Made by a program: the position numbers and the translations under genes. From contig CAYJQG010000003.1 of assembly GCA_964372325.1 (NCBI GenBank), positions 1 to 46,294 on the forward strand: DNA of 46,294 nucleotides. The letters run 5' to 3'. The first letter of the stretch is position 1; each line of letters starts with the position of its first letter. Shown piece by piece: positions 6,149 to 45,998 of the stretch. The notes beneath the pieces are model-generated. The model was given only the letters and a program-made list of their open reading frames with translations. It made no database searches and was not told the origin of the DNA. This DNA comes from an uncultured Candidatus Saccharibacteria bacterium. GTDB taxonomy: Bacteria > Patescibacteriota > Minisyncoccia > UBA6257 > JAUSGH01.

Positions 6149-6188
6149 CCTGCCTATCGGCAGGCAGGCCTGTCTGCCGATAGGCAGG
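6149..6188. repeat. Two abutting 20-nt CCTGCC palindrome units forming a 40-nt palindrome
   Basis: CCTGCCTATCGGCAGGCAGG (6149-6168) and CCTGTCTGCCGATAGGCAGG (6169-6188) are reverse complements of each other with one mismatch. Confidence 0.9.
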
Positions 6189-6228
6189 ACTCCCGTTTTC
6201 CCGACCCCTTTCCCGTTCAATTCCTACT

Positions 6229-6303
6229 TGGTGCGCCCAGTAGGAATCGAACCTACATCTTAAGCTTCGCAGGCTCACGCTCTATCCATTGAGCTATGGG
6301 CGC
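6229..6303 (-). tRNA. tRNA-Arg(GCG)
   Basis: The reverse complement folds as acceptor GCGCCCA/TGGGCGC, D-arm GCTC-AATGGATA-GAGC, anticodon arm TGAGC-CTGCGAA-GCTTA and T-arm GTAGG-TTCGATT-CCTAC. A73 and CCA are encoded. Length 75 nt. Confidence 0.9.
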
Positions 6304-6336
6304 TCTCCTTTGGACTTATGAGCATTAGCATAAACA

Positions 6337-6536
6337 AAAATCGCTCCGATGTCTATTAGACTCGGCTCCCCGAATAACATTTTGCCTATTTTTCTTAAAT
6401 TTTGGCTCCGACATTGTTAAAAATTTTCGACAGATACGCTTGTATATGTCTCAAATTTTTAATTTCGTCTCGCTCAAAATTCAAGAAAAATTGATCAAAA
6501 GCTTATCCGGGGAGCCAAGTCTATCGGGGCGATTTT
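6337..6536. mobile_element. MITE-like element, 200 nt, with roughly 35-40-nt terminal inverted repeats
   Basis: The left end AAAATCGCTCCGATGTCTATTAGACTCGGCTCCCCGAATAA (6337-6377) pairs with the right end TTATCCGGGGAGCCAAGTCTATCGGGGCGATTTT (6503-6536). It has no coding capacity. It touches the stop codon of the 3D-domain gene. Confidence 0.7.
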
Positions 6537-7018
6537 TACAGCACCACAACTTCAGTCTGCTTGATACCGAATTCGATTGCGGTGTCACGATCAGGGAACC
6601 AAATATCCATACGTTCATCAAAACGCCGACTCATACGATCTTCTACAACGAATATCTTTTCACCGAAAATTTTTGGGATTTGTACCTTGGTTCCAAATGG
6701 TAAAAAGTTTGCCGCAACAATGCCATCGTGCACTGTCTTCCCCGAAGCAGTAATGAATGGTGTTTCGTCAGTTTGGTCGGGTGTCGATGAATACGCAGTG
6801 ATAGTTACCGTGGAACGACGCCCAGCCAAGATCGACGGCTCAGCAGAACCCACTGCGGTAGTAGTGATCATTAATTCGTGCGATTTTTCCTGAAGCGTCA
6901 CAATGCTCGGCCCAGCGATTACTGCGGCATAGGCGATATTGAACATCAATATCAAGACCATAATATAGATAGCTGTTCCGATATTATGCGCTTTTAGTTG
7001 TTTAATGAGTTGTCCCAT
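6536..7018 (-). CDS. 3D-domain (MltA/RlpA-like double-psi beta-barrel) cell-wall protein with N-terminal anchor
   Basis: C-terminus ITAYSSTPDQTDETPFITASGKTVHDGIVAAN...VVEDRMSRRFDERMDIWF is typical of 3D domains. ATG 7016-7018 is preceded by AAGGAGGTG (7032-7040). An N-terminal hydrophobic helix is present. Confidence 0.8.
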   Translation of the reverse strand: MGQLIKQLKAHNIGTAIYIMVLILMFNIAYAAVIAGPSIVTLQEKSHELMITTTAVGSAEPSILAGRRSTVTITAYSSTPDQTDETPFITASGKTVHDGIVAANFLPFGTKVQIPKIFGEKIFVVEDRMSRRFDERMDIWFPDRDTAIEFGIKQTEVVVL

Positions 7019-7153
7019 AAATAATGCGAAACACCTCCTTCGAGGCATACATGAGATTATAGACCATATACTATCATAAATCAATGCCTTTGTCAAACTC
7101 ATAGAAAGTAAAACCCGCATATGTTGCGGGTTATTAGCGTGAGTTGACACCTC

Positions 7154-8149
7154 TTAACTTTCTAAACTACTCAAAATCGCCATTGCGCATTCGTAGCCAT
7201 GGTTAATGGCTTCGGTGATATTGCCTTTTTCAAAACCAACAGTCGAAAGTCCGTAAATGCGTTTCTTTGGGGCGATGGGGATGATGCGGTGCGGAGCAAG
7301 GTTGATTTCATCACCACGTTCGAGTGATGCGGCCATCGATGCGGCGAAATGGAAGAAGCGCTTCAAAAGAGGGATCGACGTTTCGCTTTGAAATACCTTA
7401 AAGTCTTTATGATGCAGCAACGCGAGTTGCATACGCAATTCAAGTACTTGGTCATGCGCCTCATCAAAGCTATAAAACACTCGGTGATAGGAATTACGCT
7501 TTTCGGGATCTTCAATGGGTAGCTGGTCATTTGAAAGGATAAAAATGGTGTCACACCCTGCCGCAATTGCCCGTTCAAGGTCGTAGTATAGTCCATCTGA
7601 ACACCACGCCTCCCCGCACTTCACCGGCGGGAGAAAACCGGCCATACTTGCCGCTGCTTGTATTGGCGGCCGCAATAACTCAGGATTTTCTCTATACTGT
7701 TTTTCGTTTGCTCTAATCATCGTGTATTCAAATCCATGCGTCTCATCGTGCATGGGGAATTCAAACACAATATTGCTTGATACAAGCCCCTGTACGTCCA
7801 ACCCCTTCACTATGCACTTCCCATCTGCAGACTTCTTTCCCCAAATTAATTCGCGCAAGCCCCTTTCAGAAAAAAACGAGTTTCTCTTTATCACTCTCCA
7901 CTTGATCTCGCTGCGATCAAATAATATATTCTGTCCCTGACTTTCGATGTACGCCCAAGTCTTTAACATCCCAGCCACACTGCCCGCGCTTACCACCTCG
8001 GCAAGATTTAGCGCATTTACCGAAACGGCTTGTACATAGTCTGGCTTAATTCCTTTCTCGTCGAATGCTTTGAGCATGCCTGCACTGTATGCCCCAGTGA
8101 AGCCGCCGCCAGCGCCGATAATTGCAATCTTTCCGAGACGCAGCGGCAT
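7154..8149 (-). CDS. Patatin-like phospholipase family protein
   Basis: Gly-rich oxyanion motif IIGAGGGFTGAY and a catalytic Asp-Gly in WCSDGLYYD. The nucleophile elbow reads AVSVNA rather than canonical GxSxG. ATG 8147-8149 has GGAGGT 4 nt upstream. Confidence 0.7.
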   Translation of the reverse strand: MPLRLGKIAIIGAGGGFTGAYSAGMLKAFDEKGIKPDYVQAVSVNALNLAEVVSAGSVAGMLKTWAYIESQGQNILFDRSEIKWRVIKRNSFFSERGLRELIWGKKSADGKCIVKGLDVQGLVSSNIVFEFPMHDETHGFEYTMIRANEKQYRENPELLRPPIQAAASMAGFLPPVKCGEAWCSDGLYYDLERAIAAGCDTIFILSNDQLPIEDPEKRNSYHRVFYSFDEAHDQVLELRMQLALLHHKDFKVFQSETSIPLLKRFFHFAASMAASLERGDEINLAPHRIIPIAPKKRIYGLSTVGFEKGNITEAINHGYECAMAILSSLES

Positions 8150-8293
8150 GATACCTCCATTAGACTTGCCCCCGAATAACATTTTGGGGGAAAGTCTATT
8201 ATCAATTTACTGCATTTAGTATGCACGTCTTATGCCACTTTTGCAAAATGAAGTCTTGCTGCGGCAGAGCTACCGGGTTTGTTATACTTAATA

Positions 8294-8989
8294 ATGATGA
8301 CTGTATTCTACCCACTTATCGTTGGATTACTTCCCAGTCTTGTCTGGACGCTCTTCTATCTTCACGAAGACGAAGACCACCCCGAGCCAAGAAAGATATT
8401 ATTCTACGCATTTCTTGCGGGGGGCGCTTCTACGTTTTTTGTCTTTGGCCCACAGATGTGGCTTAGCCAATATCTTCCGACATTGGGGATTGCGCAATTT
8501 AGTTTTGCGTCGTTATTTATGCTTGCGGGGCTTGAAGAGCTCTTTAAATTTTTGGCAGTATATATCGTGATATCAAAACGCAAAGAATTCGATACACCAA
8601 TTCATGCAATGGTATTTATGGTCATTGCTTCGTTGGGTTTTGCAGCGGTAGAAAATATTGCAGCAATTGTTACGCATGGGAATACTTTACAGCCATGGTT
8701 TTTGGGTTCGCAGGCGCTTGAGGTAACTTCGCTCCGCTTTGTTGGCGCAACACTACTCCACACCATAAGCTCGGCGTTCGTGGGGTATTATTGGGCACTT
8801 GCAATGATCGAGCGACGTAACTTTGTCCCGCTCATTGCCGAAGGCATCGGTATAGGAACGCTGATACACGCAATTTTTAATGGGTTAATCGTGTCGTTTG
8901 GGCCAACGACTATTCTTGCAACGTTACTACTTGTTACGATGAGCTTTTTTGTATTGAACGACTTTGAGGAGTTGAAGCAAGTGTCATAA
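8294..8989 (+). CDS. prsW: PrsW-family intramembrane glutamic/metalloprotease
   Basis: Multi-pass membrane protein with AGLEELFKFLAVY (EExxK) and LIHAIFNGL (HxxxN) motifs. Confidence 0.75.
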   Translation: MMTVFYPLIVGLLPSLVWTLFYLHEDEDHPEPRKILFYAFLAGGASTFFVFGPQMWLSQYLPTLGIAQFSFASLFMLAGLEELFKFLAVYIVISKRKEFDTPIHAMVFMVIASLGFAAVENIAAIVTHGNTLQPWFLGSQALEVTSLRFVGATLLHTISSAFVGYYWALAMIERRNFVPLIAEGIGIGTLIHAIFNGLIVSFGPTTILATLLLVTMSFFVLNDFEELKQVS

Positions 8990-9006
8990 GTGTATAGAAT
9001 AAAATA

Positions 9007-12120: not shown

Positions 12121-13261
12121 ACAAACTCATTGTTCCATCTGCCACTAGTGGCAGCTTTTTCTTTTTACGCAACAGATGCATGTATGCACCAACCGCAATC
12201 ATTGCGGCGTTGTCGGTGCTATATTCAAATGCGGGAACATAGAATTGTGCCCCAGCTTTTGCGGCAACATCGGCAATTGCAGTACGCAGTGCAAGGTTCG
12301 CGGCAACGCCACCACAAAGGGCAACGGACCTTGCACCGTATTCACGGACGGCGCGGAGAGTCTTTGTGGACAAAACATCTATGGCAGCGGCTTGAAAAGA
12401 AGCTGCAACATCTTTTACTTGCAACACAGTACTCGACGCATTTTCGCGCTTCATTACCTTCCCAACATTTACATGCTCCTTTATATAATATAAAACCGCC
12501 GTCTTAAGCCCTGAAAAACTAAAATCAAAATTTTTTTCTTTCATCATTGGCCGAGGAAAGTTAATTGCTTTTGGGTTGCCGGTTCGTGCAATTTTTTCGA
12601 TCTCTGGGCCACCAGGGTAAGGAAGCTCGAGCATGCGCGCGACTTTATCGAATGCTTCACCAACTGCATCGTCGCGAGTCTCCCCTAGTTTTTCCCAATG
12701 CAACAAATTGTTCATCAAAAGCAACATGGTGTGGCCACCGCTCACCAGCAATGCAATTACTGGAAATTCAAAACCTATTTCTTTTTTCGTGCTTCGTGCT
12801 TCGCGCTTTGTGCTTACAGTTTTTTGCGGCAGCAAAAAACTGTAGAGGTGCCCCTCGAGGTGATTTGCGCCGACTATGGGGATGTCCAATTCTTCCCCCA
12901 ACTTCTTTGCAAATTCGATGCCGGTCCAAAGGGCGGGCTCGAGGCCAGGGCCTACTGTGACAACAATTGTATCGATGCGCAACGCCTTTACCAATCTGCG
13001 ATGGCCGCTTCCTTTCTTTCTACCTACTAAATTCACAATCCGTTTCCAAATCTTCGGTAAATTTTTGAGGTGTTCGCGTTTTGCAAGGTTTGGAACCACG
13101 CCTCCCCAATGGCGATGGATATGCGTTTGCGAAGAAATAATTTGTTCGATTACCGTAAACGACGGTACGCCGTTACTTTTTTTGTACACCGAAAGACTCG
13201 ACGCTTCGACTAGCGCAATTGACGTATCGTCACAACTTGTTTCTATGGCCAAGATGCGCAT
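12119..13261 (-). CDS. tsaD: tRNA N6-adenosine threonylcarbamoyltransferase TsaD
   Basis: MRILAIETSCDDTSIALV N-terminus, TVGPGLEPAL, and LLVSGGHT. The start was set at ATG 13259-13261. The upstream 51 codons of the ORF track look non-homologous. Confidence 0.9.
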   Translation of the reverse strand: MRILAIETSCDDTSIALVEASSLSVYKKSNGVPSFTVIEQIISSQTHIHRHWGGVVPNLAKREHLKNLPKIWKRIVNLVGRKKGSGHRRLVKALRIDTIVVTVGPGLEPALWTGIEFAKKLGEELDIPIVGANHLEGHLYSFLLPQKTVSTKREARSTKKEIGFEFPVIALLVSGGHTMLLLMNNLLHWEKLGETRDDAVGEAFDKVARMLELPYPGGPEIEKIARTGNPKAINFPRPMMKEKNFDFSFSGLKTAVLYYIKEHVNVGKVMKRENASSTVLQVKDVAASFQAAAIDVLSTKTLRAVREYGARSVALCGGVAANLALRTAIADVAAKAGAQFYVPAFEYSTDNAAMIAVGAYMHLLRKKKKLPLVADGTMSL

Positions 13262-14038: not shown

Positions 14039-14074
14039 AATACACAATGATGATATCGTAACATCATTTTATTG

Positions 14075-14120
14075 ACAAGAAAAATAAAAAGGATTTGGGG
14101 CGCCCCGTTTGGGGCGCCCC
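14075..14120 (-). terminator. Intrinsic terminator of high-GC cassette 2 (possibly bidirectional)
   Basis: GGGGCGCCCC-GTTT-GGGGCGCCCC hairpin at 14097-14120. T-rich runs follow on both strands. Confidence 0.7.
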
Positions 14121-14187
14121 GTATTTTTGTCTGCTCGTCCCTCTTTATTTACCAACCTCGCGAGGGACAATACGAGGCGGGGAACAC

Positions 14188-14418
14188 CTATTCCTTCACG
14201 GCGTAGGTGTTCCCCTGGCGGTCGCGCCAACCACCGCCGATGCGGCGGATGTGACGCGTCGTCGTGCCCTCCGCGATCACCATCGCGGTGGCGATGGACT
14301 GACCGCGACCAGCCCAACCGGACGAGATCACTCGGCAGGGGATGCCCTGCCGAAGCGTCTTCTTCGGCGCTTCCGGGGTCGTCGGGATCAGAGTGGTGGT
14401 CGACGCTTTGTTCTCCAT
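14188..14418 (-). CDS. 76-aa protein of unknown function, high-GC3 cassette 2
   Basis: ORF-track entry 14188..14418. The ATG is preceded by AAAGGGCAGGACG. By my count 63 of 76 codons end in G/C. This is the only frame in the GC-rich block that lacks Arg/Pro/Gly-junk composition, and a terminator lies downstream. Confidence 0.55.
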   Translation of the reverse strand: MENKASTTTLIPTTPEAPKKTLRQGIPCRVISSGWAGRGQSIATAMVIAEGTTTRHIRRIGGGWRDRQGNTYAVKE

Positions 14419-14515
14419 CGTCCTGCCCTTTCAAAAGCAGTTTACGGAGTGGGGAGGGCTCACATGACCGACAATCGGCCACCGATCCTCCATAGACTCT
14501 ATATTACACTGTTTA

Positions 14516-14968
14516 CTAATTATTGTCAACACCCGCCGCTGGGGCATTACCCATCGTCACAAGTGCAACCGCAACAACTGCGAGCGCCATACCTACCATT
14601 TGCAACGTTGTCGGCACATGCCGCACCCATGCAAACTTCACGAGCGTTGCGACAATCGGGATAAACGCCGTCATAGTGGTGATCAACAGCAGCGACCCTC
14701 CACTGTGAAATGCATTAAAATAGCAAACATTGGCCACAAAATAAATTACTGCACTTAAACCCAAAAATCCCAAGGCGCTGCCCGTTGGCCAAACAATTTG
14801 CGTACCATGGCTTTGCACACCGAGCGACACTATAGTGAGCAAAAGCATCACTGGAAAACAATGGAGCAACACCACGAGTGGCTGTAGGTTCTTCAGTTTC
14901 TGCTCAACAATAACGTTTTGCGTTCCGTAGAGAATAATCGCAAACAATATAAAGAGGAACGACTTCAT
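14516..14968 (-). CDS. Small DMT/EamA-like membrane transporter
   Basis: 150 aa, about five hydrophobic helices, with a GGAGG RBS at 14976-14980. Confidence 0.6.
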   Translation of the reverse strand: MKSFLFILFAIILYGTQNVIVEQKLKNLQPLVVLLHCFPVMLLLTIVSLGVQSHGTQIVWPTGSALGFLGLSAVIYFVANVCYFNAFHSGGSLLLITTMTAFIPIVATLVKFAWVRHVPTTLQMVGMALAVVAVALVTMGNAPAAGVDNN

Positions 14969-15040: not shown

Positions 15041-15162
15041 GGCAGTCATAAATTGCGCCATAGCACAAGGCGCCTTGAAGACCTGCCGGCAGGCAGAGGT
15101 GTATTCCGCAGTGGTACTCCGACGAAAGGCAACGCAGCGATATGGCGCAATTTATGACTGCC
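15041..15162. mobile_element. MITE-like element with perfect 22-bp terminal inverted repeats
   Basis: GGCAGTCATAAATTGCGCCATA (15041-15062) and TATGGCGCAATTTATGACTGCC (15141-15162). The interior carries a CCTGCCGGCAGGCAG unit (15082-15096). Confidence 0.8.
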
Positions 15163-15938: not shown

Positions 15939-15974
15939 CCCTCCTATCGGTGGGCAGGCCTGCCGGCGGGCAGG
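15939..15974. repeat. Degenerate double CCTGCC palindrome unit
   Basis: CCTCCTATCGGTGGGCAGG followed by CCTGCCGGCGGGCAGG. Confidence 0.7.
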
Positions 15975-16044
15975 TAGGGCTGCGCAGGTTGGCTGCGAAA
16001 TGACGGGCTGGCTTTAGCTCTAACAGATTTGCTTAATCTTTTTT

Positions 16045-20809: not shown

Positions 20810-20914
20810 AGCCGAGTGGCGGAATGGCAGACCTGTCTGACGGCAGGCAGGCGCGGCAGTTTCAAGAACTGCTGCCTAAGGGCCACGAGGGTTCAACTCC
20901 CTCCCCGGCTACCA
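20810..20914 (+). tRNA. tRNA-Leu(CAA) interrupted in the D-loop by a 20-nt palindrome
   Basis: Without 20832-20851 it is an 85-nt class II tRNA. The fold is AGCCGAG TG GCG-GAATGGCAGA-CGC G GCAGT-TTCAAGA-ACTGC, variable arm TGCCTAAGGGCCAC, T-arm GAGGG-TTCAACT-CCCTC, then CCCGGCT A CCA. There is one A-C mismatch in the acceptor stem. Confidence 0.75.
20832..20851. repeat. CCTGCC-family palindrome unit inside tRNA-Leu
   Basis: CCTGTCTG-ACGG-CAGGCAGG, an 8-bp stem including one G-T pair, with a 4-nt loop. Confidence 0.9.
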
Positions 20915-21006: not shown

Positions 21007-21084
21007 GGCCGGGTGGCGAAACTGGCAAACGCGGCGTATTTAAAATGCGTGCAACTGAGGGTTCGAATCCCTCCCCGGCTACCA
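21007..21084 (+). tRNA. tRNA-Leu(UAA)-like with truncated variable region
   Basis: GGCCGGG TG GCG-AAACTGGCAAA-CGC G GCGTA-TTTAAAA-TGCGT GCAACT GAGGG-TTCGAAT-CCCTC CCCGGCT A CCA. The D-arm and 3' half are Leu-type, but the variable loop is only 6 nt and the anticodon stem has two G-U pairs. Confidence 0.5.
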
Positions 21085-21571: not shown

Positions 21572-21893
21572 AAGCCCATACGGTTGAAGTGAAGTGATGA
21601 ATGGAATGGATGAACAACGACAGCACGACAGCACATTGGCTTCATAAAAAAATTGTTTCTAAATATAAGGTAAGGATTTAGGGCATATAGATGTTGGCGG
21701 AAGATACGGCAGCAAATTGCTTATCGCGCGTCGCTAATCGTTAGCAATAACGATTCACGACCTGCGACCCGCAATTTGCCGCTGCCTCTTTCGCCAACAT
21801 CTGGCGACGATTTTCGGGTCTCTGTACCGGAGCCTTTTGGCTTCGGAGTTATACAGAGGATACGAATTTCGGAATTACTTTTAGAGGTGGACC

Positions 21894-22595
21894 ATGAACT
21901 CCCGTTTGAACTCCCGTTTGAACTCCCGTTTCGTCACGCTCAATGCGGGCCTTATCGAGAAGCTCGAAGCCGCTCACGCGGCCTTCGACAAGGCCCACAA
22001 GCCCGACCCCGCGCTCCGCGCGGAGGTAACGGCCGAGATCGCGGCGCGGCCGCATCTCGTGAGCGTCGAACCGCTGGGCAATACCACGCGCGGCGTGGTT
22101 GCCCAGCGGGCTCTGGTGCAGGGCCTCGCAGACCTCGTGTCCGCGGGAGTCTGCCGGTCGGGGATCCTGATCGAGCTCGCAAACTCGATCGGGGAGGCTC
22201 CGGCCGACCCGAAGCGGGACAAGCTGTGGGTCCTCCGCAAGGAGGGGCCCGCGGCCCAGCGGCGCTTTGCGCTGCTGGCCGAAGCCGGCGGGGGCACCCC
22301 CGTCGAGGCCCATCAGCGCCTCCAGGCGTTGGTGGCCGCTGGCGCGGTGGCTGGAGCTTCGCTCCAGGTCCGCTGTGCCGCGGCGTCTGCGAAGACGCTT
22401 GCGGCGAAGTTCGCCAAGGCGTTCGAGCGGGAGCTTTCCCGCCCGGCGCCGGCGGCGGCTTCGGCCCGCCCCCACGCGGCGGTGACGAACGTCGGGGCGG
22501 AGGTGGAAAGGGCCCTGGCAGGGGCCAAATCCACCACTCCCGCCGCCCCCGCTCCGGCCGCGCCCGCGGTCGGAAAAGGGAGGGGGGGCAAGTAG
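21894..22595 (+). CDS. 233-aa Ala-rich protein of unknown function, high-GC cassette 3
   Basis: GAGGTGG lies 4 nt before ATG 21894. It is the only frame in the GC-rich block with protein-like composition. The overlapping 216-345-aa ORFs on both strands are Arg/Pro/Gly junk. It begins with three 12-nt tandem repeats (21897-21932, NSRL NSRL NSRF). Confidence 0.6.
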   Translation: MNSRLNSRLNSRFVTLNAGLIEKLEAAHAAFDKAHKPDPALRAEVTAEIAARPHLVSVEPLGNTTRGVVAQRALVQGLADLVSAGVCRSGILIELANSIGEAPADPKRDKLWVLRKEGPAAQRRFALLAEAGGGTPVEAHQRLQALVAAGAVAGASLQVRCAAASAKTLAAKFAKAFERELSRPAPAAASARPHAAVTNVGAEVERALAGAKSTTPAAPAPAAPAVGKGRGGK

Positions 22596-22869
22596 GCCGC
22601 ACGGGCCTAGGTCGCCCCGAGCGGAACTCCGGGTGGTCGTATGGAGGGTTCGCCCTCTGTACGTTCCACCCGGGGTAACCCGCGCCTGAACGATCTCCAA
22701 CTCTCCCCCGAGTAGCGCCGCCGGGCTTAACCGCCCAATGGCACTCAAAGTATGCGCGCTGTGCCCTACGGGGCTAGCCGCAGGCGCTTCTCGGGAGCCT
22801 GTGGCCTGGTCAAGGAACAATTTCTCTTTTTGCCCCTTGTGGGGCAGGAGATGAAAATGAAGTGATAAC

Positions 22870-22928
22870 ATTTCACCCCCGCACATCGCGGGGGTGAAAT
22901 ATTTTTAATCCGCTTTGCGGATTTTTTT
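22870..22928 (+). terminator. Two tandem intrinsic terminators
   Basis: ATTTCACCCCC-GCACATCGC-GGGGGTGAAAT followed by ATTTTT, then AATCCGC-TTT-GCGGATT followed by TTTTT. Confidence 0.75.
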
Positions 22929-23109: not shown

Positions 23110-23444
23110 GTAACCCCTCACGCTACGTATGCCTCGACTCATGACTTTAGGGGAGCCCACCTTGCGAAGGATATGTTTCCCGAACGGATATCGCTTCTCA
23201 AAAACAGAATAATTTTACTCCGGTAAAATTTCCTTCTCTCTCGGTCCCATCTTATTAAAACATAGGTTATTGACGGACGGGACCTCCGAGATGTTTCTCG
23301 AAACGATATCCGTTCGGGAAACATTCGTTATTGCACCTGCCTGCCGGCAGATAGGCTTGGCTTCGGAACCCAGTCTCCCTCAAAGTTATGAGCCGAGAGC
23401 ATACTTATATTACTCAGTTATTATTGGATAGCGTGAGGGGTTAC
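23110..23444. mobile_element. MITE family X, copy 2 (335 nt), carrying nested inserts
   Basis: It has the same ends as 20114..20282, in the same orientation. It contains a 152-nt inner element with perfect 21-bp inverted repeats (23173-23193 and 23304-23324) and a CCTGCC unit at 23336-23356. Confidence 0.8.
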
Positions 23445-24849: not shown

Positions 24850-27800
24850 TTAATCGTATTCAATAAAATCTTCGTCTTCGAAGCTTTCGAGTTTGCGTTT
24901 TGCTGGTGTATGGTTTTTAAACATGGTGAGCTCGGCGGGGATTTCGTACAAAAAACGCGATGGAGTTTCGTGGAATGTAAGCGTGAGCTCGAGACGTGCA
25001 CGAGTCATTGCTACATACATTAGCCGTCGCTCTTCTTCGAGCGCGCCATCTTCGCCGATAGAGCGGCCGTGGGGCAGCAACCCTTCACTGCAACCCGCAA
25101 CAAACACTTGGTTAAACTCCAAGCCTTTGGCTGCATGGATCGTCATGAGGTGTACGACACCTCCGGCCAGGCGCTTCGCACGAACAGCGGTGCGGCCGTT
25201 GGGCATTTCGAGTGAAGAGACGAGGCTGACTTGTTCGAGAAACTCAGTTAATCCGGCTGATGGAAGAGGTTGCTTCGTACCCATCGACTCGCTCGGGGTT
25301 CCCTGCCTGCCGGCAGGCAGGCCTGCCCGACGGTTAGGCGGGCTCGCAATGACGACCTCAGGAACTGTGTTCGTCATAAGACCCAAGTGGTTAAACGTCC
25401 CAGCAAACATAATGAGCTCGTTAATATTTTCAATACGCTCTTCTCCATTTTTCTGCTTTTCCATTGCCGCGATATAGTCAGTACTTTCTAAAAAGAAATT
25501 GATGAGATCCAATAATTTCTCTGTTTTTGCACGCTCGGGCAATTCAGATGCAAGCATCGCCATTTCTTTTTTCCCAAAATTCTTTTCCAATCGTTCGAGT
25601 GCCATACTGTTCTTTGGGTTGGCTGCATATTGGAGTGCCGCAATAATATCTTTAATCTCCATACGGTCGTAAAAACGCAGCCCTCCATAAATGCGGTAGG
25701 GGATGCTGTTTTGAAGTAGGGCTTGTTCTATGGCACGCGACTGTGCGTTGGTGCGATAAAGGACTGCGATGTTTGGTTCGGCGTTCTGCGACTCGAGTAA
25801 CGCAAGAATTCTCCCGGCAACAAAATAACTCTCACCGCTTTCGTCTTTAAAGCCATGAATTTCGACAACATTCCCATTCTTGTTTTTCGTCCACAATGTT
25901 TTCGGTTTCTGAACGATGTTGTGACGGATCACCGCGCTCGATGCACCAATGATGTTCCCGGTTGAACGATAATTCTCTTCAAGCTTTATAACCGTTGCCC
26001 CCTCCCAATCGCGCTCGAAATTTAAAAAATTTCTAAAATCTGAGCCTCGAAACGCATAAATGGAGTTATGTACCACAATGCCGTTAGCGATATAATTATG
26101 TACATGTTCCACGTCGAGGTCGTAGACCAAACCGTTATACTCTTCGATAACCACTCGCTCAATGTCATCTTCCACAATAGACTCTTGTTCATAAATTGCG
26201 GTAGCCATTGTAACACGCGCATGAGAGGCTGGCTGAAAAAATAAACGTTTTTTTGTTGTAAGACACGCACTGCGCACAATTTCTATCTCGGCATTTACAC
26301 GCTGTAAGCTTTTCGCTATTTTTTCAATTTCTTTATACCGCAGGCGTACAATCTCCATGCGCCAATCATGCAACTTACCCTTTCGTGTTTTGAACCCCAA
26401 CTTCTCGATTTCCTTTTTTAATAACTCATCTTTCGTATTCACGCTTATTCTACTCATCCCCCAAGGATTCACTATACTTTTTCGCTTGTCGTCGAATAAT
26501 GCAACGCGTATGCGCAAACGCCGTGATGTATGACGGATCGTCCCTTGAGGGATCCAATGGGGGTACGCAAAATATAAGAGTTCCTCCTTAAATAATTTTT
26601 GTGCTCGTTCTTTCGTATCAATTACCGTGAACAGTCGATCCACGCTTTGCTGACTAAGCTTCATATTCCGATTATTGGTATCAAATACTACCGTTGGTAT
26701 CCCATATTGAAATGCGTAAAGAAACTCATAGTATTCTGCCTTGCCCCTATCGGTACACACGCGTAGCACCCACATCTTGTCTGCTTTTTCTTGATTATTT
26801 CGCACAACAAGGCCGATCTGCTTTTTTCCTCTTGGGCCCCACCGCGCTCCTTTTGCGATACCAATGCGGAACCCTTTATCTTTGCGATACATAAGATATA
26901 CAAAATAAATATCGCGCACCAATTGTAGCCGAGTAAAGATGAGATGGTTTGGCGTCAAGGTAATTTCTTTGCCTGTTTTCGTCGTTATCTTGATGAGCTT
27001 CCCGTTATATTTTCGTTTATAAATTTTCAGTACTTTTGCCTCGCAAACTTCGCCGTTACCCCCAGCTGAACATATTGTCTCTCCTCGTTTTATCTCTTTT
27101 ATCATTTTCTGCCCCCGTTTTGTCGCAATGAATGTCTCGGGAAGAACACACTGTGCGTCGTCCCCAACAACGCTCAAATTCTTATGTATTCCGGCCAAAC
27201 ACTTAATAAGTGCATACTGCGCACTATTGGTGTCTTGATATTCGTCGACTAAGATATGGTCGTACCGCGCCTGCCACTGTTGCAGCACGTCGGGGTACCC
27301 AATAAATATTCGTACTGGCTTTTCGATAAGGTCATCGAAGTCGAACGCGTTATTTTCTTGAAGGGCAGTTTCATAGCTTTCATAAACTCTTGAGACGAGT
27401 TGGTCGAGGAAGTTTGGGGAGTGAGGACCAGCATAATATGGATCCCGGACCGAAGACGACGTTGATCCCAGCTCAGAGGCTGGGATGACAACGCTTTGAT
27501 GTCCCGCTAACTCATTTTTAATTTTCCCGATACGCGCACGAAACATTGCGGGGTTGTAGCGCTCTTTGTCTATTCCCATATTTTTTACGATACCCTTTAA
27601 GAGGCGTAGCGCGTCGTCGTCGTCGAAGATAGAAAAATTTCTCGTACGACCGATGCGGTGACCTTCGAGTTTCAAAAAACGAGCTCCCCAAGAGTGGAAG
27701 GTTCCTACGAATGGCATATCGCCGGTTGCTAATCGCGGGTCCTGCCTGCCGACGGGCAGGTCGGTGGTCGCGGGTCGCAGATTGTGGGTCGCAGACTGTG

Positions 27801-28053
27801 GGGTTTCTTCGCTTACTAACGATTTGCGATTCGCAATAAGCGCCCTGCTGACACGCTCTTTCATCTCCTGCGCTGCCTTGTTGGTAAACGTAATGGCAAG
27901 AATACGGTCGGGTAACACTCCGCGCTCTAGGAGATGCACAATGCGACTTGTAAGCGTCTTGGTTTTGCCCGACCCCGCGCCAGCGACGATAAGTAACGGC
28001 CCACCAGCGTGGTCGACTGCTTGCTGTTGAGGGGGGTTGAGTTGAGCGTCCAT
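24850..28053 (-). CDS. uvrD: UvrD/PcrA-type DNA helicase, intein-containing precursor
   Basis: LNPPQQQAVDHAGGPLLIVAGAGSGKT, TFHSWGARFL, VDEYQDTN, VVGDDAQ / SIYAFRGSD (motif III, split by the intein), TIHAAKGLEF and YVAMTRAR. Confidence 0.92.
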   Translation of the reverse strand: MDAQLNPPQQQAVDHAGGPLLIVAGAGSGKTKTLTSRIVHLLERGVLPDRILAITFTNKAAQEMKERVSRALIANRKSLVSEETPQSATHNLRPATTDLPVGRQDPRLATGDMPFVGTFHSWGARFLKLEGHRIGRTRNFSIFDDDDALRLLKGIVKNMGIDKERYNPAMFRARIGKIKNELAGHQSVVIPASELGSTSSSVRDPYYAGPHSPNFLDQLVSRVYESYETALQENNAFDFDDLIEKPVRIFIGYPDVLQQWQARYDHILVDEYQDTNSAQYALIKCLAGIHKNLSVVGDDAQCVLPETFIATKRGQKMIKEIKRGETICSAGGNGEVCEAKVLKIYKRKYNGKLIKITTKTGKEITLTPNHLIFTRLQLVRDIYFVYLMYRKDKGFRIGIAKGARWGPRGKKQIGLVVRNNQEKADKMWVLRVCTDRGKAEYYEFLYAFQYGIPTVVFDTNNRNMKLSQQSVDRLFTVIDTKERAQKLFKEELLYFAYPHWIPQGTIRHTSRRLRIRVALFDDKRKSIVNPWGMSRISVNTKDELLKKEIEKLGFKTRKGKLHDWRMEIVRLRYKEIEKIAKSLQRVNAEIEIVRSACLTTKKRLFFQPASHARVTMATAIYEQESIVEDDIERVVIEEYNGLVYDLDVEHVHNYIANGIVVHNSIYAFRGSDFRNFLNFERDWEGATVIKLEENYRSTGNIIGASSAVIRHNIVQKPKTLWTKNKNGNVVEIHGFKDESGESYFVAGRILALLESQNAEPNIAVLYRTNAQSRAIEQALLQNSIPYRIYGGLRFYDRMEIKDIIAALQYAANPKNSMALERLEKNFGKKEMAMLASELPERAKTEKLLDLINFFLESTDYIAAMEKQKNGEERIENINELIMFAGTFNHLGLMTNTVPEVVIASPPNRRAGLPAGRQGTPSESMGTKQPLPSAGLTEFLEQVSLVSSLEMPNGRTAVRAKRLAGGVVHLMTIHAAKGLEFNQVFVAGCSEGLLPHGRSIGEDGALEEERRLMYVAMTRARLELTLTFHETPSRFLYEIPAELTMFKNHTPAKRKLESFEDEDFIEYD
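26065..27150 (-). mobile_element. Intein (362 aa) in helicase motif III
   Basis: It starts at Cys302 (TGT, 27148-27150), right after GDDAQ. Block B is LTPNHLIFT. It ends at VVHN663 and is followed by Ser (+1) of SIYAFRG. About 250 central residues are unassigned and could be a homing-endonuclease-like domain. Confidence 0.85.
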
Positions 28054-29127: not shown

Positions 29128-29170
29128 CAAGAAACTAGAAACTGGATACTAGAAACTAATAACTATCTCC

Positions 29171-29533
29171 ATGATCAAAAATTTTTATGATCTCAGGGTG
29201 TGGCAAGACGCACATCAACTTACGCTTGATGTGTATCGTATTACTAAAAAATATCCAAGCGAAGAACGCTTTGGCTTAACTGCACAAATGCGCAGCTCGG
29301 CTGCTTCGACACCCGCGAATATTGCAGAGGGCTTTGGAAGATTTCATTACAAAGATAAGGTCCGGTTTTATTTACAAGCACGTGCTTCTGCGGTCGAACT
29401 GCAGAACCATTTAATCCTCTCGCAAGATCTTGAATATATCTCTAAAGAATCCGCGCGTATATTATTCAGCAAGGCAAGTCTGGTGATAAAAGAATTAAAT
29501 GGGCTTATCCGTAAAACCGGTCCTAGTGCCTAG
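29171..29533 (+). CDS. Four-helix-bundle protein (23S rRNA intervening-sequence protein / Avd-like family)
   Basis: FYDLRVWQDAHQLTLDVYRITKKYPSEERFGLTAQMRSSAASTPANIAEGFGR is the characteristic N-terminal pattern of this family. Confidence 0.8.
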   Translation: MIKNFYDLRVWQDAHQLTLDVYRITKKYPSEERFGLTAQMRSSAASTPANIAEGFGRFHYKDKVRFYLQARASAVELQNHLILSQDLEYISKESARILFSKASLVIKELNGLIRKTGPSA

Positions 29534-29554
29534 TTACTAGTGCCCAATTTCTTT

Positions 29555-30427
29555 ATGCGTCAACCGCTTGGTCAACATTTTTTAAAGAATACCGGCGTTA
29601 TTACGCAAATTATCGATGCGCTAGATTTGCGTACCGGTGAAACGGTGGTTGAAATTGGGCCAGGGGAGGGGGCGCTCACATTTCCGCTTGCGGAGCGATG
29701 CGCGAAGTTCGATTGCAAACTTATTGCGATTGAAAAAGATGAAGCGTTAGTTAAGAAATTACGAAATTGGAAAATTAAGAAATTAATTGGAGATGTCACC
29801 ATCATGCACGGCGATGCACTCGAAGAAATTCCTAAGCTCTTCACGTCATGGCAAATACACCGTGGATCCCTGCCTGCCGGTAGGCATGGCCAGATTGAAC
29901 CTCAGATGACGGATATTAAAATTGTTGGCAACATCCCTTACTACATCACCGGAAAACTGCTACGCACCATCAGCGAGCTCGAGCACAAACCTAAATGTAC
30001 CGTGCTTATGGTGCAACGCGAGGTGGCCGAACGCATTGTAACAAAGCCACCGCACATGAACTTGCTCGCCGCAGCAACACAAATTTGGGCAGATGCAGAA
30101 ATTATTGCACTACTTAAACAAAAAGATTTTGACCCGCCGCCAGAAGTAGAGTCGGCGGTTGTACGACTGCTAAGCGCTAAGCGCTTAGCGCCATGCCTAC
30201 CGGCAGGCAGGCTTAGCGCTGATAAGCTCGCGCATTATTATTCGTTTATCCACGTCGCGTTTAAACAACCAAGAAAAACATTGCTGAATAATTTATGCGG
30301 GGGCTTCGATATATCTAAGTCGCAGATCATCGATACGCTGAAGGGGAGTGGGTGGAACGAAAAAACTCGGGGGCAAGAGTTAGGCATCGCACAGCTACTC
30401 AACCTCACAAATAAATTTTTTAACTAG
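29555..30427 (+). CDS. rsmA: 16S rRNA (adenine1518/1519-N6)-dimethyltransferase RsmA/KsgA
   Basis: GQHFLKN, VVEIGPGEGALT (SAM motif), VGNIPYYITG and PPPEVESAVVRL. ATG 29555 was chosen. Two palindrome-unit insertions are present. Confidence 0.9.
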   Translation: MRQPLGQHFLKNTGVITQIIDALDLRTGETVVEIGPGEGALTFPLAERCAKFDCKLIAIEKDEALVKKLRNWKIKKLIGDVTIMHGDALEEIPKLFTSWQIHRGSLPAGRHGQIEPQMTDIKIVGNIPYYITGKLLRTISELEHKPKCTVLMVQREVAERIVTKPPHMNLLAAATQIWADAEIIALLKQKDFDPPPEVESAVVRLLSAKRLAPCLPAGRLSADKLAHYYSFIHVAFKQPRKTLLNNLCGGFDISKSQIIDTLKGSGWNEKTRGQELGIAQLLNLTNKFFN

Positions 30428-36343: not shown

Positions 36344-36470
36344 GGTTTAGAAACTAGGCACTAGACACTAGTGATTAGCCACTAGACACTAGCCACTAGA
36401 AACTGGACACTAGAAACTGGACACTAGAAACTGGAAACTGGGAACTAGTAAATAGCCACTAGACACTAAT
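36344..36470. repeat. CTAG-rich tandem repeat tract
   Basis: Iterations of (A/C)CACTAGA(A/C)ACTGG, including CACTAGAAACTGGA three times around 36394-36440. Related tracts lie at 29128-29165, 29520-29545, 43974-44000 and 45427-45460. Confidence 0.8.
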
Positions 36471-37324: not shown

Positions 37325-37386
37325 GTCATTATTATTCTTTTTCCTTTTTCCTTTTTCATTCTTCGTTTTTAATTTATACTACATAC

Positions 37387-40541: not shown

Positions 40542-40661
40542 CCCTAGTGCGTAATTCCTAATATCTAATATCTAATTTCTAATTTCTAATAAAATGACTA
40601 AGCAATAAATGATAAAAAAAATCTAAACTTTATTCATTAGATATTAGAAATTTTCTCATCA

Positions 40662-41457: not shown

Positions 41458-41497
41458 ACCTTATATCCTTATAAATAATGAGAGTTATACTATAATT

Positions 41498-42748: not shown

Positions 42749-42776
42749 CCTTGCCTTATAAAACATACAATCGATT

Positions 42777-43973: not shown

Positions 43974-44015
43974 GGTATAGGGTTTAGCCACTAGCCACTA
44001 AGCTGGCAAAACGAA

Positions 44016-44057
44016 AATTTACTAAACAAGTTGACGATCGTCAACTTGTTTAGTAAA
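44016..44057. repeat. Long perfect palindrome P2 (42 nt)
   Basis: ATTTACTAAACAAGTTGACGA|TCGTCAACTTGTTTAGTAAAT. It shares 19 of 20 arm positions with P1. Confidence 0.95.
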
Positions 44058-44138
44058 TAGCCTATTAACACTAAAAAAATCCCTACAAATATTGTTGGGG
44101 AAATAGTTTACTCATCATCTTCAGTTTTATCGAACCAA

Positions 44139-44255
44139 CCAATACCAAAACCACGAACTTCAAGCATCAAATAACAAATAAATTCTAATTTTTTAAATTC
44201 GAATTTATGTTATTGAGTATTATTTGAAGTTTGGTATTTGAGATTTGGTGCTTAT
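44139..44255. repeat. CCCAAAT-hairpin element, copy F (diverged left arm)
   Basis: CCAATACCAAAACCACGAACTTCAAGCATCAAATAACAAATAAATTC paired with TTATTTGAAGTTTGGTATTTGAGATTTGGTGCTTAT. Confidence 0.75.
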
Positions 44256-44275
44256 GAGTGGTAAACCCTACACCC

Positions 44276-44719
44276 TTAAAGGGGCTTCACCACGACGTAC
44301 CTCCCAGGACCGAGACCGATACTTTCAGTTTTTACGTCTGGCCGAGTTCCTAGTTCGTTGTGCACTAATCTCCGTTCGTAGGCATTCATTGCGGGGAGTG
44401 CCACTTCGCCTTTCGTCACTAATGCTTTTCGCGCTGCAGCCTTTGCGATTTCCACAATAAGCCTCTCGCGTTCTTTTCGATAATTGTTGATGTCGACAAA
44501 AACGTATTCTAGACTTCTTTTCTGCGCGAATAACCGCAACAATGTCTCAAAATTTGCAATGAGTTCTGGGACCCATGCTTTTATCCAATCGCCTTCGTTG
44601 ATGAAGACCCTTATCTTCCTCCCCTCAACGTCTTTGTCGACACTCACGTCGGCAAAACCGGCGAGCTCGAGTGCTTTTTTAAGTATTTCTACTAACGGTT
44701 CCATAACATTTAACAACAT
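44276..44719 (-). CDS. jag: Jag/KhpB RNA-binding protein (KH + R3H)
   Basis: R3H region NAYERRLVHNELGTRPDVKTESIG. It lies immediately downstream of yidC. Confidence 0.85.
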   Translation of the reverse strand: MLLNVMEPLVEILKKALELAGFADVSVDKDVEGRKIRVFINEGDWIKAWVPELIANFETLLRLFAQKRSLEYVFVDINNYRKERERLIVEIAKAAARKALVTKGEVALPAMNAYERRLVHNELGTRPDVKTESIGLGPGRYVVVKPL

Positions 44720-44736
44720 TTAACGGTTCCATAATA

Positions 44737-45426
44737 TTATTCCTGATCTACTAATTTTCTATTAATATGTAGCTGCTGTACCAGCGAGAACAGCGACGAC
44801 GTTAACCAATAAAGCCCAACTGCGGCAGGCAGTACCCCTAAAATCACTATTGTCAGAACCGGACCTATGTACATCATTTGTCGCCCTACTCGAGAGACAA
44901 CATCATTCTTATCGCCATTGGTTTTCGGTAGCGTCAATCGACTCTGATAATACTGCGCCGCTGCTGCTAAAACTACAATCACCATACTCTTTTCCTCTAA
45001 GTTAAGCAAGTACAAAAACGTCGGGTCGATGTGCGTGACACTTGGCAAGAACGCATAGAGCCCCGTCAACGCTTCTTCTTTTAACCCATACAAAAATACC
45101 TGGTACAACGCAATGAGTATTGGCAGCTGCAACACAATAAGCCCAATACTTGAAAATGGGTTGATGTTGTGGTGCCTATATAGCTCCATCATTGCTTTTG
45201 CTTGTTCTTCTTTATTGTCTTTATATCGCTCTTGTACACGTTTCATCTCAGGCTGCAGCCGCTGCATAATTGTTTGGTTCTTGAACATCTTATAAAAGAG
45301 TGGGTACAGCAATAAGCGCACCAAAACCGTTAACAATATAATTGCGAGGCCCAGGTCACGAAACGCGAGCAAATATAAACCAATCAAGAGGTTAAATAAG
45401 GGCTGGTATAGGAGGAGGTCAAACAT
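44737..45426 (-). CDS. yidC: Membrane protein insertase YidC (short form)
   Basis: Five-helix profile with LLYPLFYKMFKNQTIMQRLQPEMKRVQERYKDNKE and NPFSSIGLIVLQLPILIALY. Confidence 0.9.
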   Translation of the reverse strand: MFDLLLYQPLFNLLIGLYLLAFRDLGLAIILLTVLVRLLLYPLFYKMFKNQTIMQRLQPEMKRVQERYKDNKEEQAKAMMELYRHHNINPFSSIGLIVLQLPILIALYQVFLYGLKEEALTGLYAFLPSVTHIDPTFLYLLNLEEKSMVIVVLAAAAQYYQSRLTLPKTNGDKNDVVSRVGRQMMYIGPVLTIVILGVLPAAVGLYWLTSSLFSLVQQLHINRKLVDQE

Positions 45427-45610
45427 AATTAATTAGGGATTAGGCACTAGGCACTAGTAATTATTAAATTTCTAATATCTCATTGCTCGTACTTTATAGA
45501 ATTTCTAATTCCAAATATCTAATTTCTAATAAAACCTTGCAGTGTCTAATGTTTTTAAGAATCAACTATTAAACATTAGACATTTTAATATTTGCTTATT
45601 TTATTAAGAA

Positions 45611-45946
45611 TTAGGTATTAGAATTCCCTAGCATGGCGTCGAGCGAGGTCAGTAATATTTCTTTAGTCGCCTTTGCTGCGCTCGCATGCACAATACATAC
45701 ATACTCTGCTACTGCGAATTTATCGAGGTGCTCTCTAAAGAAATCGTAGATCGTTCGCTTGATGCGATTGCGCACCACTGCGCGTTTATCAACGCTCTTC
45801 CCCACAACTACCGCAAAACGCGATATTGTTTTTGTGGCGGGGAATATCTTTATAGTACAATATTGCCCCTTAACAGTTCGAGTTGGCCGGATAGAGCCAA
45901 CTCGCTTAAAATCTTGTGTTGTGAGGTGGTATTTTTGGGGGAGCAT
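45611..45946 (-). CDS. rnpA: Ribonuclease P protein component
   Basis: Basic 111-aa protein with KRAVVRNRIKRTIYDFFR (RNR motif). It lies between rpmH and yidC. Confidence 0.88.
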   Translation of the reverse strand: MLPQKYHLTTQDFKRVGSIRPTRTVKGQYCTIKIFPATKTISRFAVVVGKSVDKRAVVRNRIKRTIYDFFREHLDKFAVAEYVCIVHASAAKATKEILLTSLDAMLGNSNT

Positions 45947-45960
45947 AATCGATAATTTCT

Positions 45961-45998
45961 AATTCCTAATACCTGCCTGCCGGCAGGTATTAGGAATT
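45961..45998. repeat. 38-nt palindrome containing a CCTGCC unit
   Basis: AATTCCTAATACCTGCCTGCCGGCAGGTATTAGGAATT. It overlaps the rpmH stop codon. Confidence 0.9.

Follow-up and report, generated by a model that had tools for sequence, protein, structure and literature searches.

What kind of element can lie in intergenic DNA, in a tRNA gene and in two protein-coding genes of a single 46,294-nt stretch, and what has put it there? The stretch (hereafter the window) is contig CAYJQG010000003.1, positions 1 to 46,294, of an uncultured Candidatus Saccharibacteria bacterium (GenBank assembly GCA_964372325.1), and the element, which we call P, is a short palindrome that occurs in two forms. P1, CCTGCCTGCCGGCAGGCAGG, is a perfect palindrome of 20 nt with the structure (CCTG)2-CCGG-(CAGG)2, and P2, CCTGCCTGCCGGTAGGCATGG, is an asymmetric form of 21 nt. 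P proved to be a fixed part of a cassette that joins a small GIY-YIG nuclease gene to tRNA sequence. We give a probability of about 60% to the reading in which P is the cognate DNA hairpin of an Ssn-like clade of single-domain GIY-YIG nucleases and the copies in the window are solo, non-autonomous members of that system.

An earlier note on this DNA, written from the sequence alone, had claimed at least ten copies of the palindrome. All ten of the places it listed are occupied, and the units total about 12. With up to three mismatches allowed, P1 matches the window 11 times and has no match in any of 100 dinucleotide-preserving shuffles, which is how the comparison of copy number with expectation, proposed in that note, comes out for the window. 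One copy is an exact P1 and two are exact P2; the other units, about nine, have diverged, mostly by two or three mismatches, and most of the window's copies, being diverged, look like relics of past activity. The copies are as follows, with the strand where one is assigned.

6149-6188: a tandem pair of P units (CCTGCCTATCGGCAGGCAGG + CCTGTCTGCCGATAGGCAGG) in intergenic DNA, 40 nt 3' of tRNA-Arg(GCG)
15082-15097: 16-nt short form, CCTGCCGGCAGGCAGA, intergenic, with EamA and DoxX genes on either side
15939-15978: two degenerate P units (CCTCCTATCGGTGGGCAGG + CCTGCCGGCGGGCAGGTAGG), intergenic, adjoining the recG stop
20810-20914, plus strand: tRNA-Leu(CAA) gene, its D-arm interrupted by P (ARAGORN after deletion of the insert; Infernal)
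20832-20851: P copy CCTGTCTGACGGCAGGCAGG, two mismatches, after GGCAGA and before the 3' D-stem strand of this tRNA
23336-23355: P copy CCTGCCTGCCGGCAGATAGG, intergenic
25302-25342: exact P1 (25302-25321) and a degenerate second unit, in uvrD (minus strand), read as GLPAGRQG
27741-27760: P copy CCTGCCTGCCGACGGGCAGG, in uvrD, read as LPVGRQ
29869-29889, plus strand: exact P2, in rsmA, read as LPAGRHG
30191-30211, minus strand: exact P2, reverse complement, in rsmA, read as CLPAGR
45963-45996: 34-nt perfect hairpin TTCCTAATA-CCTGCCTGCCGGCAGG-TATTAGGAA in the rnpA/rpmH spacer (-15.7 kcal/mol, z = -9.4)

Taken as single-stranded DNA, the 40-mer at 6149-6188 folds into one near-perfect hairpin with an 18-bp stem (-20.3 kcal/mol, z = -6.9), and the departures from consensus are mirrored between its two units as paired changes. 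The tip of the 45963-45996 hairpin is a 16-nt form of P, at 45972-45987. The copy at 23336 had been placed inside a miniature inverted-repeat transposable element (MITE); it lies 11 nt outside the pair of 25-nt inverted repeats (23173-23197 and 23300-23324), and so beside it.

Beyond the window, P is a real repeat that is letter-identical across at least ten phyla. Exact P1 was found at at least 120 loci in a one-genome-per-species collection, where about one is expected by chance in 596 Gb. Among the matches listed, the hosts belong to Patescibacteria, Bacteroidota, Omnitrophota, Planctomycetota, Verrucomicrobiota, Elusimicrobia, Nitrospirota, Desulfobacterota, Bdellovibrionota, Chloroflexi, Ignavibacteria and uncultured "Gammaproteobacteria", and they include cultured isolates of Winogradskyella, Flagellimonas, Longitalea, Flavivirga, Aquiflexum, Agriterribacter and Aestuariivivens. 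Viral contigs carry both forms exactly (P1 in 35, P2 in 7), and at least 120 metagenome contigs hold exact P2; since P2 recurs exactly elsewhere, the variant in rsmA is not a private mutation. The flanks of P copies are mutually unrelated from locus to locus, and on one contig (L154) at least ten 21-nt P2 units form a tandem array. The earlier note had recognised no described family of repetitive extragenic palindromes (REP), bacterial interspersed mosaic elements (BIME) or MITE in the palindrome, and the exact P sequence was likewise not found in the searchable literature; Delihas 2011 and a paper on G-quadruplex heptamers contain nothing that bears on it.

P is short and GC-rich, and many of its sources are metagenome assemblies, features that would suit chance, an assembly or adapter artefact, or an intron removed at the RNA level. 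Any of these is scarcely credible, however, because none of the 100 shuffles reaches the observed count, P occurs in cultured isolates and in complete genomes from many laboratories, its diverged copies carry paired changes, and reading frames are preserved through the inserts, while a 20-nt deletion usually breaks the open reading frame (ORF).

The link to a nuclease gene came from tRNA loci. Several P-bearing "tRNAs" elsewhere are 5' tRNA fragments followed by a small ORF and then by an intact tRNA. The ORF encodes a domain-only GIY-YIG protein of 77-95 aa with PF01541 as its sole domain, and it follows P at a distance of 16-80 nt in 7 of 12 GIY-bearing loci, all found via P. When the ORFs near P that have at least 90 aa were compared all against all, no recurrent neighbour and no full-length parent element for P emerged; the GIY-YIG genes were missed there because they are shorter than the 90-aa cut-off. 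With a profile built for the clade, ORFs scoring at least 108 bits had P just upstream in 12 of 12 independent loci, although in one of these (L311) P was too diverged for the automatic scan and was recognised by inspection. No ORF scoring 75 bits or less had P, and the low scorers that were inspected (L290-L296) had GTCATCCC.../...GGGATGAC-type hairpins in its place. Homologues found in a protein collection by profile search number in the thousands, the named ones being from Omnitrophica, WWE3, Chitinophagales, Dokdonia, Muricauda, Ekhidna and Sphingobacteriales.

Seven GIY-YIG proteins were then taken blind, picked solely by the length of their contigs, with complete isolate genomes among them. 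All seven lie in the same arrangement: a 5' tRNA part (nt 1 to about 33) that carries P in its D-loop, then the GIY-YIG ORF, then an intact copy of the same tRNA that begins within a few bases of the GIY-YIG stop. The tRNAs are Leu-GAG, Leu-CAA, Arg-ACG (with two different proteins), Arg-TCG, Met and Leu-TAA. Four of the seven carry an exact P, and in the other three P is diverged, doubled or interrupted by a nested element. Identical P sequences accompany nucleases that, among the seven, are 51-75% identical to a reference member, and this constancy of P while the nuclease diverges indicates that P is under sequence constraint within the cassette. A viral contig found via the protein alone has a P-like hairpin 22 nt upstream of GIY-YIG; scans of viral contigs with single GIY-YIG proteins gave no matches. 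P adjoins the GIY-YIG domain in other settings too, within the coding sequence of a host at L060 and next to a hairpin other than a tRNA at L236.

At L060:3861-4150, the GIY-YIG domain, with P just upstream, lies in frame within a host ORF of 714 aa; the 20 nt of P offset the frame shift of the cassette, which leaves the 14 host codons between the two out of frame. Another unusual arrangement was seen at L015:3990-4225, where the 5' half of a tRNA, with P in its D-arm, and the 3' half are split by about 130 nt that hold a complete tRNA-Met gene.

In the window, the palindrome does interrupt tRNA-Leu, as had been proposed: once 20832-20851 is deleted, ARAGORN reports a canonical tRNA-Leu(CAA) of 85 nt. 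With the insert present, default ARAGORN and Rfam searches called no gene at 20810-20914, and a permissive Infernal search gave 20810-20911 a tRNA score of 37.7 bits. Exact P occupies the equivalent position of a tRNA-Leu fragment from Giovannonibacteria (L099). The neighbouring tRNA at 21007-21084 has the anticodon TAA and a Leu-type D-arm together with a short variable region, not the long arm expected of tRNA-Leu, and the 92-nt spacer between it and tRNA-Leu(CAA) holds heptamers of the GCGATAA type.

To find out how copies are added, P was deleted from each site and the joined flanks were run by blastn for paralogous or orthologous empty sites. Six filled/empty comparisons were obtained (a slash marks a junction).

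L141:10422 and L149:1537: P within the loop of a different hairpin repeat, of which many copies are empty
GCCCCGTAG/GGGC: filled in L141 (10690), empty in L149 (8812)
tRNA D-loop: filled at L152:515, empty at L152:822
tRNA-Met variable loop: filled in L145 (2284), empty in L077 (2760)
Duplicated segment in L004: filled/empty pair

In each comparison exactly 20 nt have been added and there is no target duplication, so that these six pairs speak against classical target-site duplication, such as a MITE of a DDE transposon would leave. Many P copies lie within another P, following CCTGCCTGCCG/G, and hairpins of the GGATTCCCGC...GCGGGAATGAC type frequently carry P in the loop. Of P2 sites, 13.2% stand between perfect inverted arms of 7 bp or more (0.9% of control positions), and of P1 sites 5.9% do (1.2% of control positions). 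New copies therefore arise as exact 20-nt additions, preferentially in loops exposed as single strands (hairpins, P copies and tRNA D-loops), and the suggestion that P is a hairpin-targeted mini-element is supported by the precise 20-nt presence or absence, the nesting and the enrichment in hairpin loops. In its own orientation P2 abuts the right-hand arm, the gap to the arm averaging 4.6 nt on its left side and 1.8 nt on its right, an asymmetry that points to a strand-specific event. Preferences in the immediate flanks are weak, with A at -1 and T at +1 for P1, and G at -1 (59%) and C at +1 (58%) for P2.

P2 sites have a further signature of exactly seven nucleotides. The 7-mer to the left of P2 equals the 7-mer to the right at 10 of 126 sites (8%), and no such identity is seen at k = 5, 6, 8 or 9; with one mismatch allowed, 7-nt direct flanks are present at 15 of 126 P2 sites, against a control rate of 0.7%. 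The same 7-mer often continues in tandem on both sides of P2 (e.g., GAAAATT, CTTTTGA, GTAATTG and GATTTGC). P may prefer heptamer arrays or may help to create them. Two arrays adjoin coding copies in the window.

30169-30219: heptamers on both sides of the second rsmA copy; the minus strand reads CGCTAAG, P2, then CGCTAAG CGCTTAG CGCTTAG (Tandem Repeats Finder, TRF, 30169-30191, period 7)
27761-27802: six degenerate 7-nt repeats (TCGGTGG TCGCGGG TCGCAGA TTGTGGG TCGCAGA CTGTGGG) that abut the uvrD P

The second array is translated as PQSATHNLRPATTD, and TRF reports a period of 14 at 27772-27802. The copy at 45972 abuts an array of TAATTCC heptamers (TRF 45953-45974). Tandem repeats of period 7 are unusually abundant throughout the window, most of them in intergenic DNA (for example 36348-36468, 5543-5569, 12786-12815, 37337-37370, 40558-40591 and 45500-45530); many have the form CTAGNNA or ATTTGGG, one has 17 units, and they resemble the heptamer short tandemly repeated repetitive (STRR) sequences of cyanobacteria.

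These sites bear on whether a solo P has moved at all. It could instead be the scar of a GIY-YIG cassette whose nuclease gene has recombined out between the duplicated target segments, since a cassette of the form A-P-B-GIY-A-B-C predicts A-P-B-C after recombination between the two B segments, which fits tRNA-Leu(CAA) of the window and its lack of target duplication. The loci in which P and the GIY-YIG domain sit in a host coding sequence or by a non-tRNA hairpin also fit. We nevertheless consider it unlikely that solo P is not independently mobile, because most solo sites (hairpin loops, P copies, tandem arrays and protein loops) have no duplicated flanks or cassette remnants, and because the array of P2 units on L154 and the nesting of P in P are hard to derive from loss of a cassette.

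The proposal of an active nuclease draws on a known family. Ssn proteins are single-domain GIY-YIG proteins of about 94 aa (CDD cd10448; Chenal et al. 2025, PMC11893778). Their ligands, bound solely as single-stranded DNA, are the NTS/dRS3 hairpin of Neisseria, CGTCATTCCCGCGMAVGCGGGAATCYRG, and SRM hairpins related to it; the cut falls upstream of the hairpin, the nuclease gene has repeats on its flanks, and NTS/SsnA modulates transformation in Neisseria (PMC11893778). The authors remarked on the IS-like look of NTS-ssnA-NTS and left the spread or mobility of the repeat as a hypothesis; the paper makes no mention of Bacteroidetes, Patescibacteria, Omnitrophota, tRNA or the P sequence (PMC11893778). 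By profile comparison, the P clade is homologous to the GIY-YIG genes flanked by NTS/SRM-type hairpins (hhalign against the SRM-flanked clade, probability 99.6%, E = 5e-24, 29% identity), and the solved structures nearest to the P-clade protein are UPF0213 proteins and SLX1.

By analogy with SsnA, we infer that P is mobilised by its Ssn-like nuclease. The P-clade enzyme would recognise folded P on single-stranded DNA and nick at or near its foot. P, released or copied, would then be sealed into a nick in another exposed loop, and because it is self-complementary with a flush foot, sealing would add exactly 20 nt without duplication; replication would fix the insertion on both strands. At cassettes, recombination between the duplicated tRNA(22-33) segments could delete the nuclease gene and leave a solo P in a complete tRNA, which would be the state of tRNA-Leu(CAA) in the window. 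In coding DNA, only events that keep the frame would survive, by the 21-nt form or by P plus multiples of three 7-nt repeats, and the survivors would sit in surface loops that tolerate changes of length, presumably translated as LPAGR-type peptides.

Several observations weigh against this reading. GIY-YIG enzymes only cut, so the ligation step must be assumed. A profile scan found no GIY-YIG ORF in the 46-kb window. Perfect hairpins account for 10-16% of sites and the remainder have no obvious structure, and the strict 7-nt flanking repeats are not accounted for by the nuclease model. Loci scanned for P cannot gauge the frequency of cassettes that lack it, which only the seven blind picks and L289 can do. 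P also departs from the Neisseria system in ways that matter for the analogy: its sequence has no similarity to the NTS/SRM consensus, CGTCATTCCCGCGMAVGCGGGAATCYRG, an oriented flank of the kind required by SsnA is missing (P1 is perfectly symmetric), and it lies on the 5' side of the gene only, with a tRNA and not a second repeat after the stop. A bolder version, in which P is the smallest autonomous-in-trans mobile DNA known, a blunt-footed hairpin excised by GIY-YIG, sealed by host ligase and spread through more than ten phyla and viruses from a tRNA-docked parent cassette, is possible though doubtful.

The candidate mobiliser that we considered first was a transposase. On the minus strand, the window ORF at 121-795 encodes a 224-aa Y1 transposase (PF01797, E = 1e-14), and a Y1 (HUH) enzyme of this IS200-like type could move P by a single-strand "peel and paste" route, as in systems of REP and REP-associated tyrosine transposase (RAYT). 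HUH Y1 enzymes are established as hairpin-specific mobilisers that leave no duplication (PMC3116915, PMC11893778), the 6149-6188 doublet is REPIN-like, Y1 homologues are widespread (62-75% identical across thousands of contigs), and the protein has a sub-threshold match to the NCBIfam REP-associated tyrosine transposase. That match, however, scores 64.9 against a cut-off of 80; what flanks the Y1 gene is a 17-nt inverted repeat of its own, GGTGTCAGGTACCTTTT, and not P, the closest copy of which is over 5 kb off. In 2.0 Mb of P-bearing loci a single further Y1 homologue was found, six contigs with close Y1 homologues hold 0-1 P-like copies each, and P lacks a terminal GTAG or CGTC tag. The transposase was set aside for this lack of linkage and, as mobiliser of P, remains a minority candidate that we rate as quite improbable. 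Its inverted repeat lies at 64-80 and 104-120 on one side and at 844-860 on the other, with a 40-bp tandem duplication at 41-120. Nearly all of its homologues are exactly 224 aa, occur in many phyla, often on contigs of about 1 kb, and are more conserved than this organism's RsmA.

The copies in protein genes raise the question of how an insert is tolerated. As the earlier note held, all four keep their ORFs open. The UvrD gene (24850-28053, minus strand, 1067 aa with its intein included) is read through two P copies (TTDLPVGRQDPR, RRAGLPAGRQGTPSES) as LPVGRQ and LPAGRQ, and the RsmA gene (29540-30427) is read through two P2 copies, RGSLPAGRHGQ and APCLPAGRLSA, as LPAGRH and LPAGRL. The P1 motif is free of stops in all six frames, and two of its three frames encode LPAGR. 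Across coding copies generally all frames of P are used (MPTGRQ, CLPVGM, HAYRQAG and LPAGRx), which means that the four LPAGR readings in the window reflect the codon structure of the motif and not selection for the peptide.

How often P is found in a reading frame differs with its length. ORFs read through the site, with at least 100 open codons on each side, at 30% of P2 sites (n=122), 10% of P1 sites (n=154) and 38% of about 1500 random control positions drawn from the same loci. The 20-nt P1 is thus about fourfold depleted in read-through ORFs, whereas the 21-nt P2 is near the random frequency, in keeping with frame arithmetic: 20 nt shift the frame, and 21 nt, or 20/21 nt plus three heptamers, keep it. 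At P1 sites within long ORFs, removal of 20 nt usually breaks the ORF, which argues against excision from mRNA. Splicing of the inserts, as a tRNA or mRNA intron, is ruled out for mRNA by this continuity of frame, and the idea that P is a processing signal finds no support at that level.

The note had suggested that the inserts are tolerated as surface loops, and comparison with RsmA homologues, with a distant syntenic relative (L286) and with a KsgA alignment puts the window's coding copies in loops of variable length. The 25302-25342 copy is within a 38-aa lineage-specific insert of UvrD, and the first RsmA insert faces a 13-residue gap in the alignment to a solved B. subtilis KsgA chain. 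Directly after the former lies CTCGCAATGAC, the arm of an NTS-like hairpin, a motif whose two occurrences in the window are not above chance. For empty sites, which the note had proposed to seek in sister genomes, distant relatives were compared: L286, which shares the gene order uvrD-rsmA, lacks all four P segments in UvrD and RsmA, that of the 27741-27760 copy included, and the RsmA segments are absent from most RsmA homologues. For uvrD and rsmA no sister genome was closer than about 55-58% protein identity, and the comparison covered the distant syntenic L286, L287 and L313; the nearest RsmA matches in the protein collection are at most about 58% identical, the named ones being from Ca. 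Harrisonbacteria and Parcubacteria.

At one site the same element does recur in another genome, an outcome of the kind that the note, for unrelated lineages, would have read as a sign of ancestral inserts. L313/L314, a closer relative, has the M23, uvrD, IVP, rsmA neighbourhood in common with the window, and at loop site 1 of RsmA it reads GGATC/CCTGCCTGCCGGCGGGCATGG where the window reads GGATC/P2; the elements are identical at 20 of 21 positions, while the RsmA proteins are 51% identical. This holds for RsmA site 1 only, in a related genome of the candidate phyla radiation (CPR), and not for the other sites. The site-1 copy was probably inherited from a common ancestor of the window lineage and L313, which is not an argument against mobility of the P family, and its near-perfect conservation may stem from selection, from gene conversion by other copies or from a hot spot that was hit more than once.

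Such conservation, and the letter-perfect state of P in cassettes despite divergence of the nuclease, would also suit a signal selected by the host and spread by gene conversion, either an Ssn-like restriction tag for incoming single-stranded DNA, given that NTS/SsnA affects transformation (PMC11893778), or a hairpin for RNA stability or processing. We regard this as decidedly improbable: a signal role is implausible for copies in essential coding regions and a tRNA, most copies in the window are decaying, with two or three mismatches, and precise insertion polymorphisms and self-nesting are signatures of mobile DNA.

Other insertions were noted around the same two genes. UvrD residues 302-663 (26065-27150, minus strand) are a 362-residue intein with Intein_splicing and Hint domains, at DDAQ/C...HN/SIYAFRG, and the UvrD of L286 has no intein. 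Directly upstream of rsmA, 29171-29533 encodes a 120-aa "23S rRNA-intervening sequence protein" (PF05635, a bAvd-like four-helix bundle), bracketed by the heptamer arrays AGAAACT x4 (29130-29158) and CCTAGTG x3 (29522-29544); this gene is adjacent to rsmA in L313 too, and the family occurs near P in five other loci. RsmA proteins of other CPR bacteria (P0039, P0040, P0048, P0062 and P0070) carry in-frame peptides typical of other hairpin repeats (CHSREGGNP... and SNGMNPVR...), and at L315:2380-2480 two P copies are nested in an NTS-type hairpin (GTCATTGCGAG...), all within the second RsmA loop. Colonisation of protein loops by hairpin repeats seems to be general in this CPR group.

Two further features of the window lie outside these subjects. 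At 14069-14968 (minus strand) an EamA transporter gene is seemingly split into ORFs of 137 and 150 aa where L287 has a single gene of 288 aa, which could be due to a frameshift, a pseudogene or an assembly error. The region 21700-22900 includes about 1 kb at 56% G+C, against 46% for the contig, with long overlapping ORFs on both strands that have no Pfam or Rfam match; its repeats are a 12-nt unit x3 at 21895-21931 and an inverted 114-nt match at 21689-21802.

If excision by GIY-YIG and sealing by host ligase are true, they would make up a route of transposition without transposase-mediated strand transfer, with a parent cassette that docks at tRNA genes by duplicating their 5' halves and with 7-residue loops written into essential proteins as P spreads. 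As for genomes at large, the family shows that in reduced CPR genomes essential proteins regularly gain short peptide insertions from selfish hairpins, and that a change in length of a single nucleotide, from 20 to 21, largely lifts the barrier to colonising coding sequence. The system bears on the long-standing question of how short bacterial hairpin repeats (REP, dRS3/NTS and the small dispersed repeats, SDR) multiply, and on the biological role of Ssn nucleases outside Neisseria. A new pair of nuclease and hairpin would extend the single-strand-DNA toolset proposed for these enzymes. With an invariant 20-mer, clean filled and empty sites, a defined tRNA cassette and cultured hosts (such as Dokdonia, Muricauda/Flagellimonas and Ekhidna), the system offers a test case.

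Among known systems, Ssn/SRM is the one that P most invites comparison with. In both, a short hairpin repeat in many copies is linked to a single-domain GIY-YIG gene of about 80-95 aa; P is a stable hairpin of 20-21 nt, with about 12 units in 46 kb and hundreds of loci elsewhere, and NTS-type hairpins co-occur with P and host it in their loops. P adjoins GIY-YIG in the related loci (12 of 12, and 7 of 7 in the blind test), though not within the window. They differ in that P lies inside a partial tRNA copy with the intact tRNA after the gene, whereas NTS repeats flank ssnA, in that P is common in coding sequence, against 2% for NTS, and in the exact filled/empty insertion polymorphisms of P.

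REP/REPIN-RAYT systems are like P in that their palindromes, about 20 nt long, are dispersed in many copies, form doublets that can fold as one longer hairpin, lie now and then in frame in replication and repair genes, and leave no target duplication (Bertels & Rainey 2011, PMC3116915; Di Nocera et al. 2013, PMC3733652). However, P1 has no GTAG or CGTC, and the GGTAGG of P2 is internal and not a terminal tag. P is the same across phyla, whereas REPs are lineage-specific; the gene linked to P encodes a GIY-YIG nuclease and not an HUH transposase, and P does not flank the Y1 gene of the window. Nor is P confined to extragenic DNA, as the four window copies in coding sequence and the one in a tRNA show.

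The SDR of cyanobacteria, elements of 21-27 nt, were reportedly regarded as mobile by Elhai and colleagues in 2008, and are said to nest and to be associated with tandem heptamer repeats. To our knowledge, no enzyme has been linked to them. According to PMC4390886, SDR5 is inserted precisely between nt 3 and 4 of HIP1, a palindrome that is thus hit off-centre. P resembles these elements in its 20-21-nt units, its precise off-centre insertion into palindromes and its nesting; hosts and sequences differ by description, and no cyanobacteria are among the at least 120 P1 genome matches listed.

Phage T4 SegB is a free-standing GIY-YIG homing endonuclease in a tRNA gene cluster, with a target that includes a conserved tRNA-gene motif (PMC2330249). 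It has in common with the P cassette a GIY-YIG gene lodged among tRNA genes, but it is multi-domain, cuts double-stranded DNA and has neither a dispersed hairpin repeat nor a partial tRNA duplication. The palindromic elements of Rickettsia, described by Ogata and colleagues in 2000, are said to be selfish DNA lying in frame in protein genes and in RNA genes, and the GC-cluster and hairpin elements of mitochondria are palindromic selfish DNA tolerated within genes. P is like them in its tolerated in-frame insertion into protein genes and its presence in RNA genes; they are longer (30-150 nt), lineage-restricted and without a linked GIY-YIG cassette, in contrast to a P of 20-21 nt that crosses phyla. 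The P system is best filed as one of the Ssn-nuclease/hairpin-repeat kind, with its own hairpin, a tRNA-docked cassette and a 21-nt subtype that inserts in frame.

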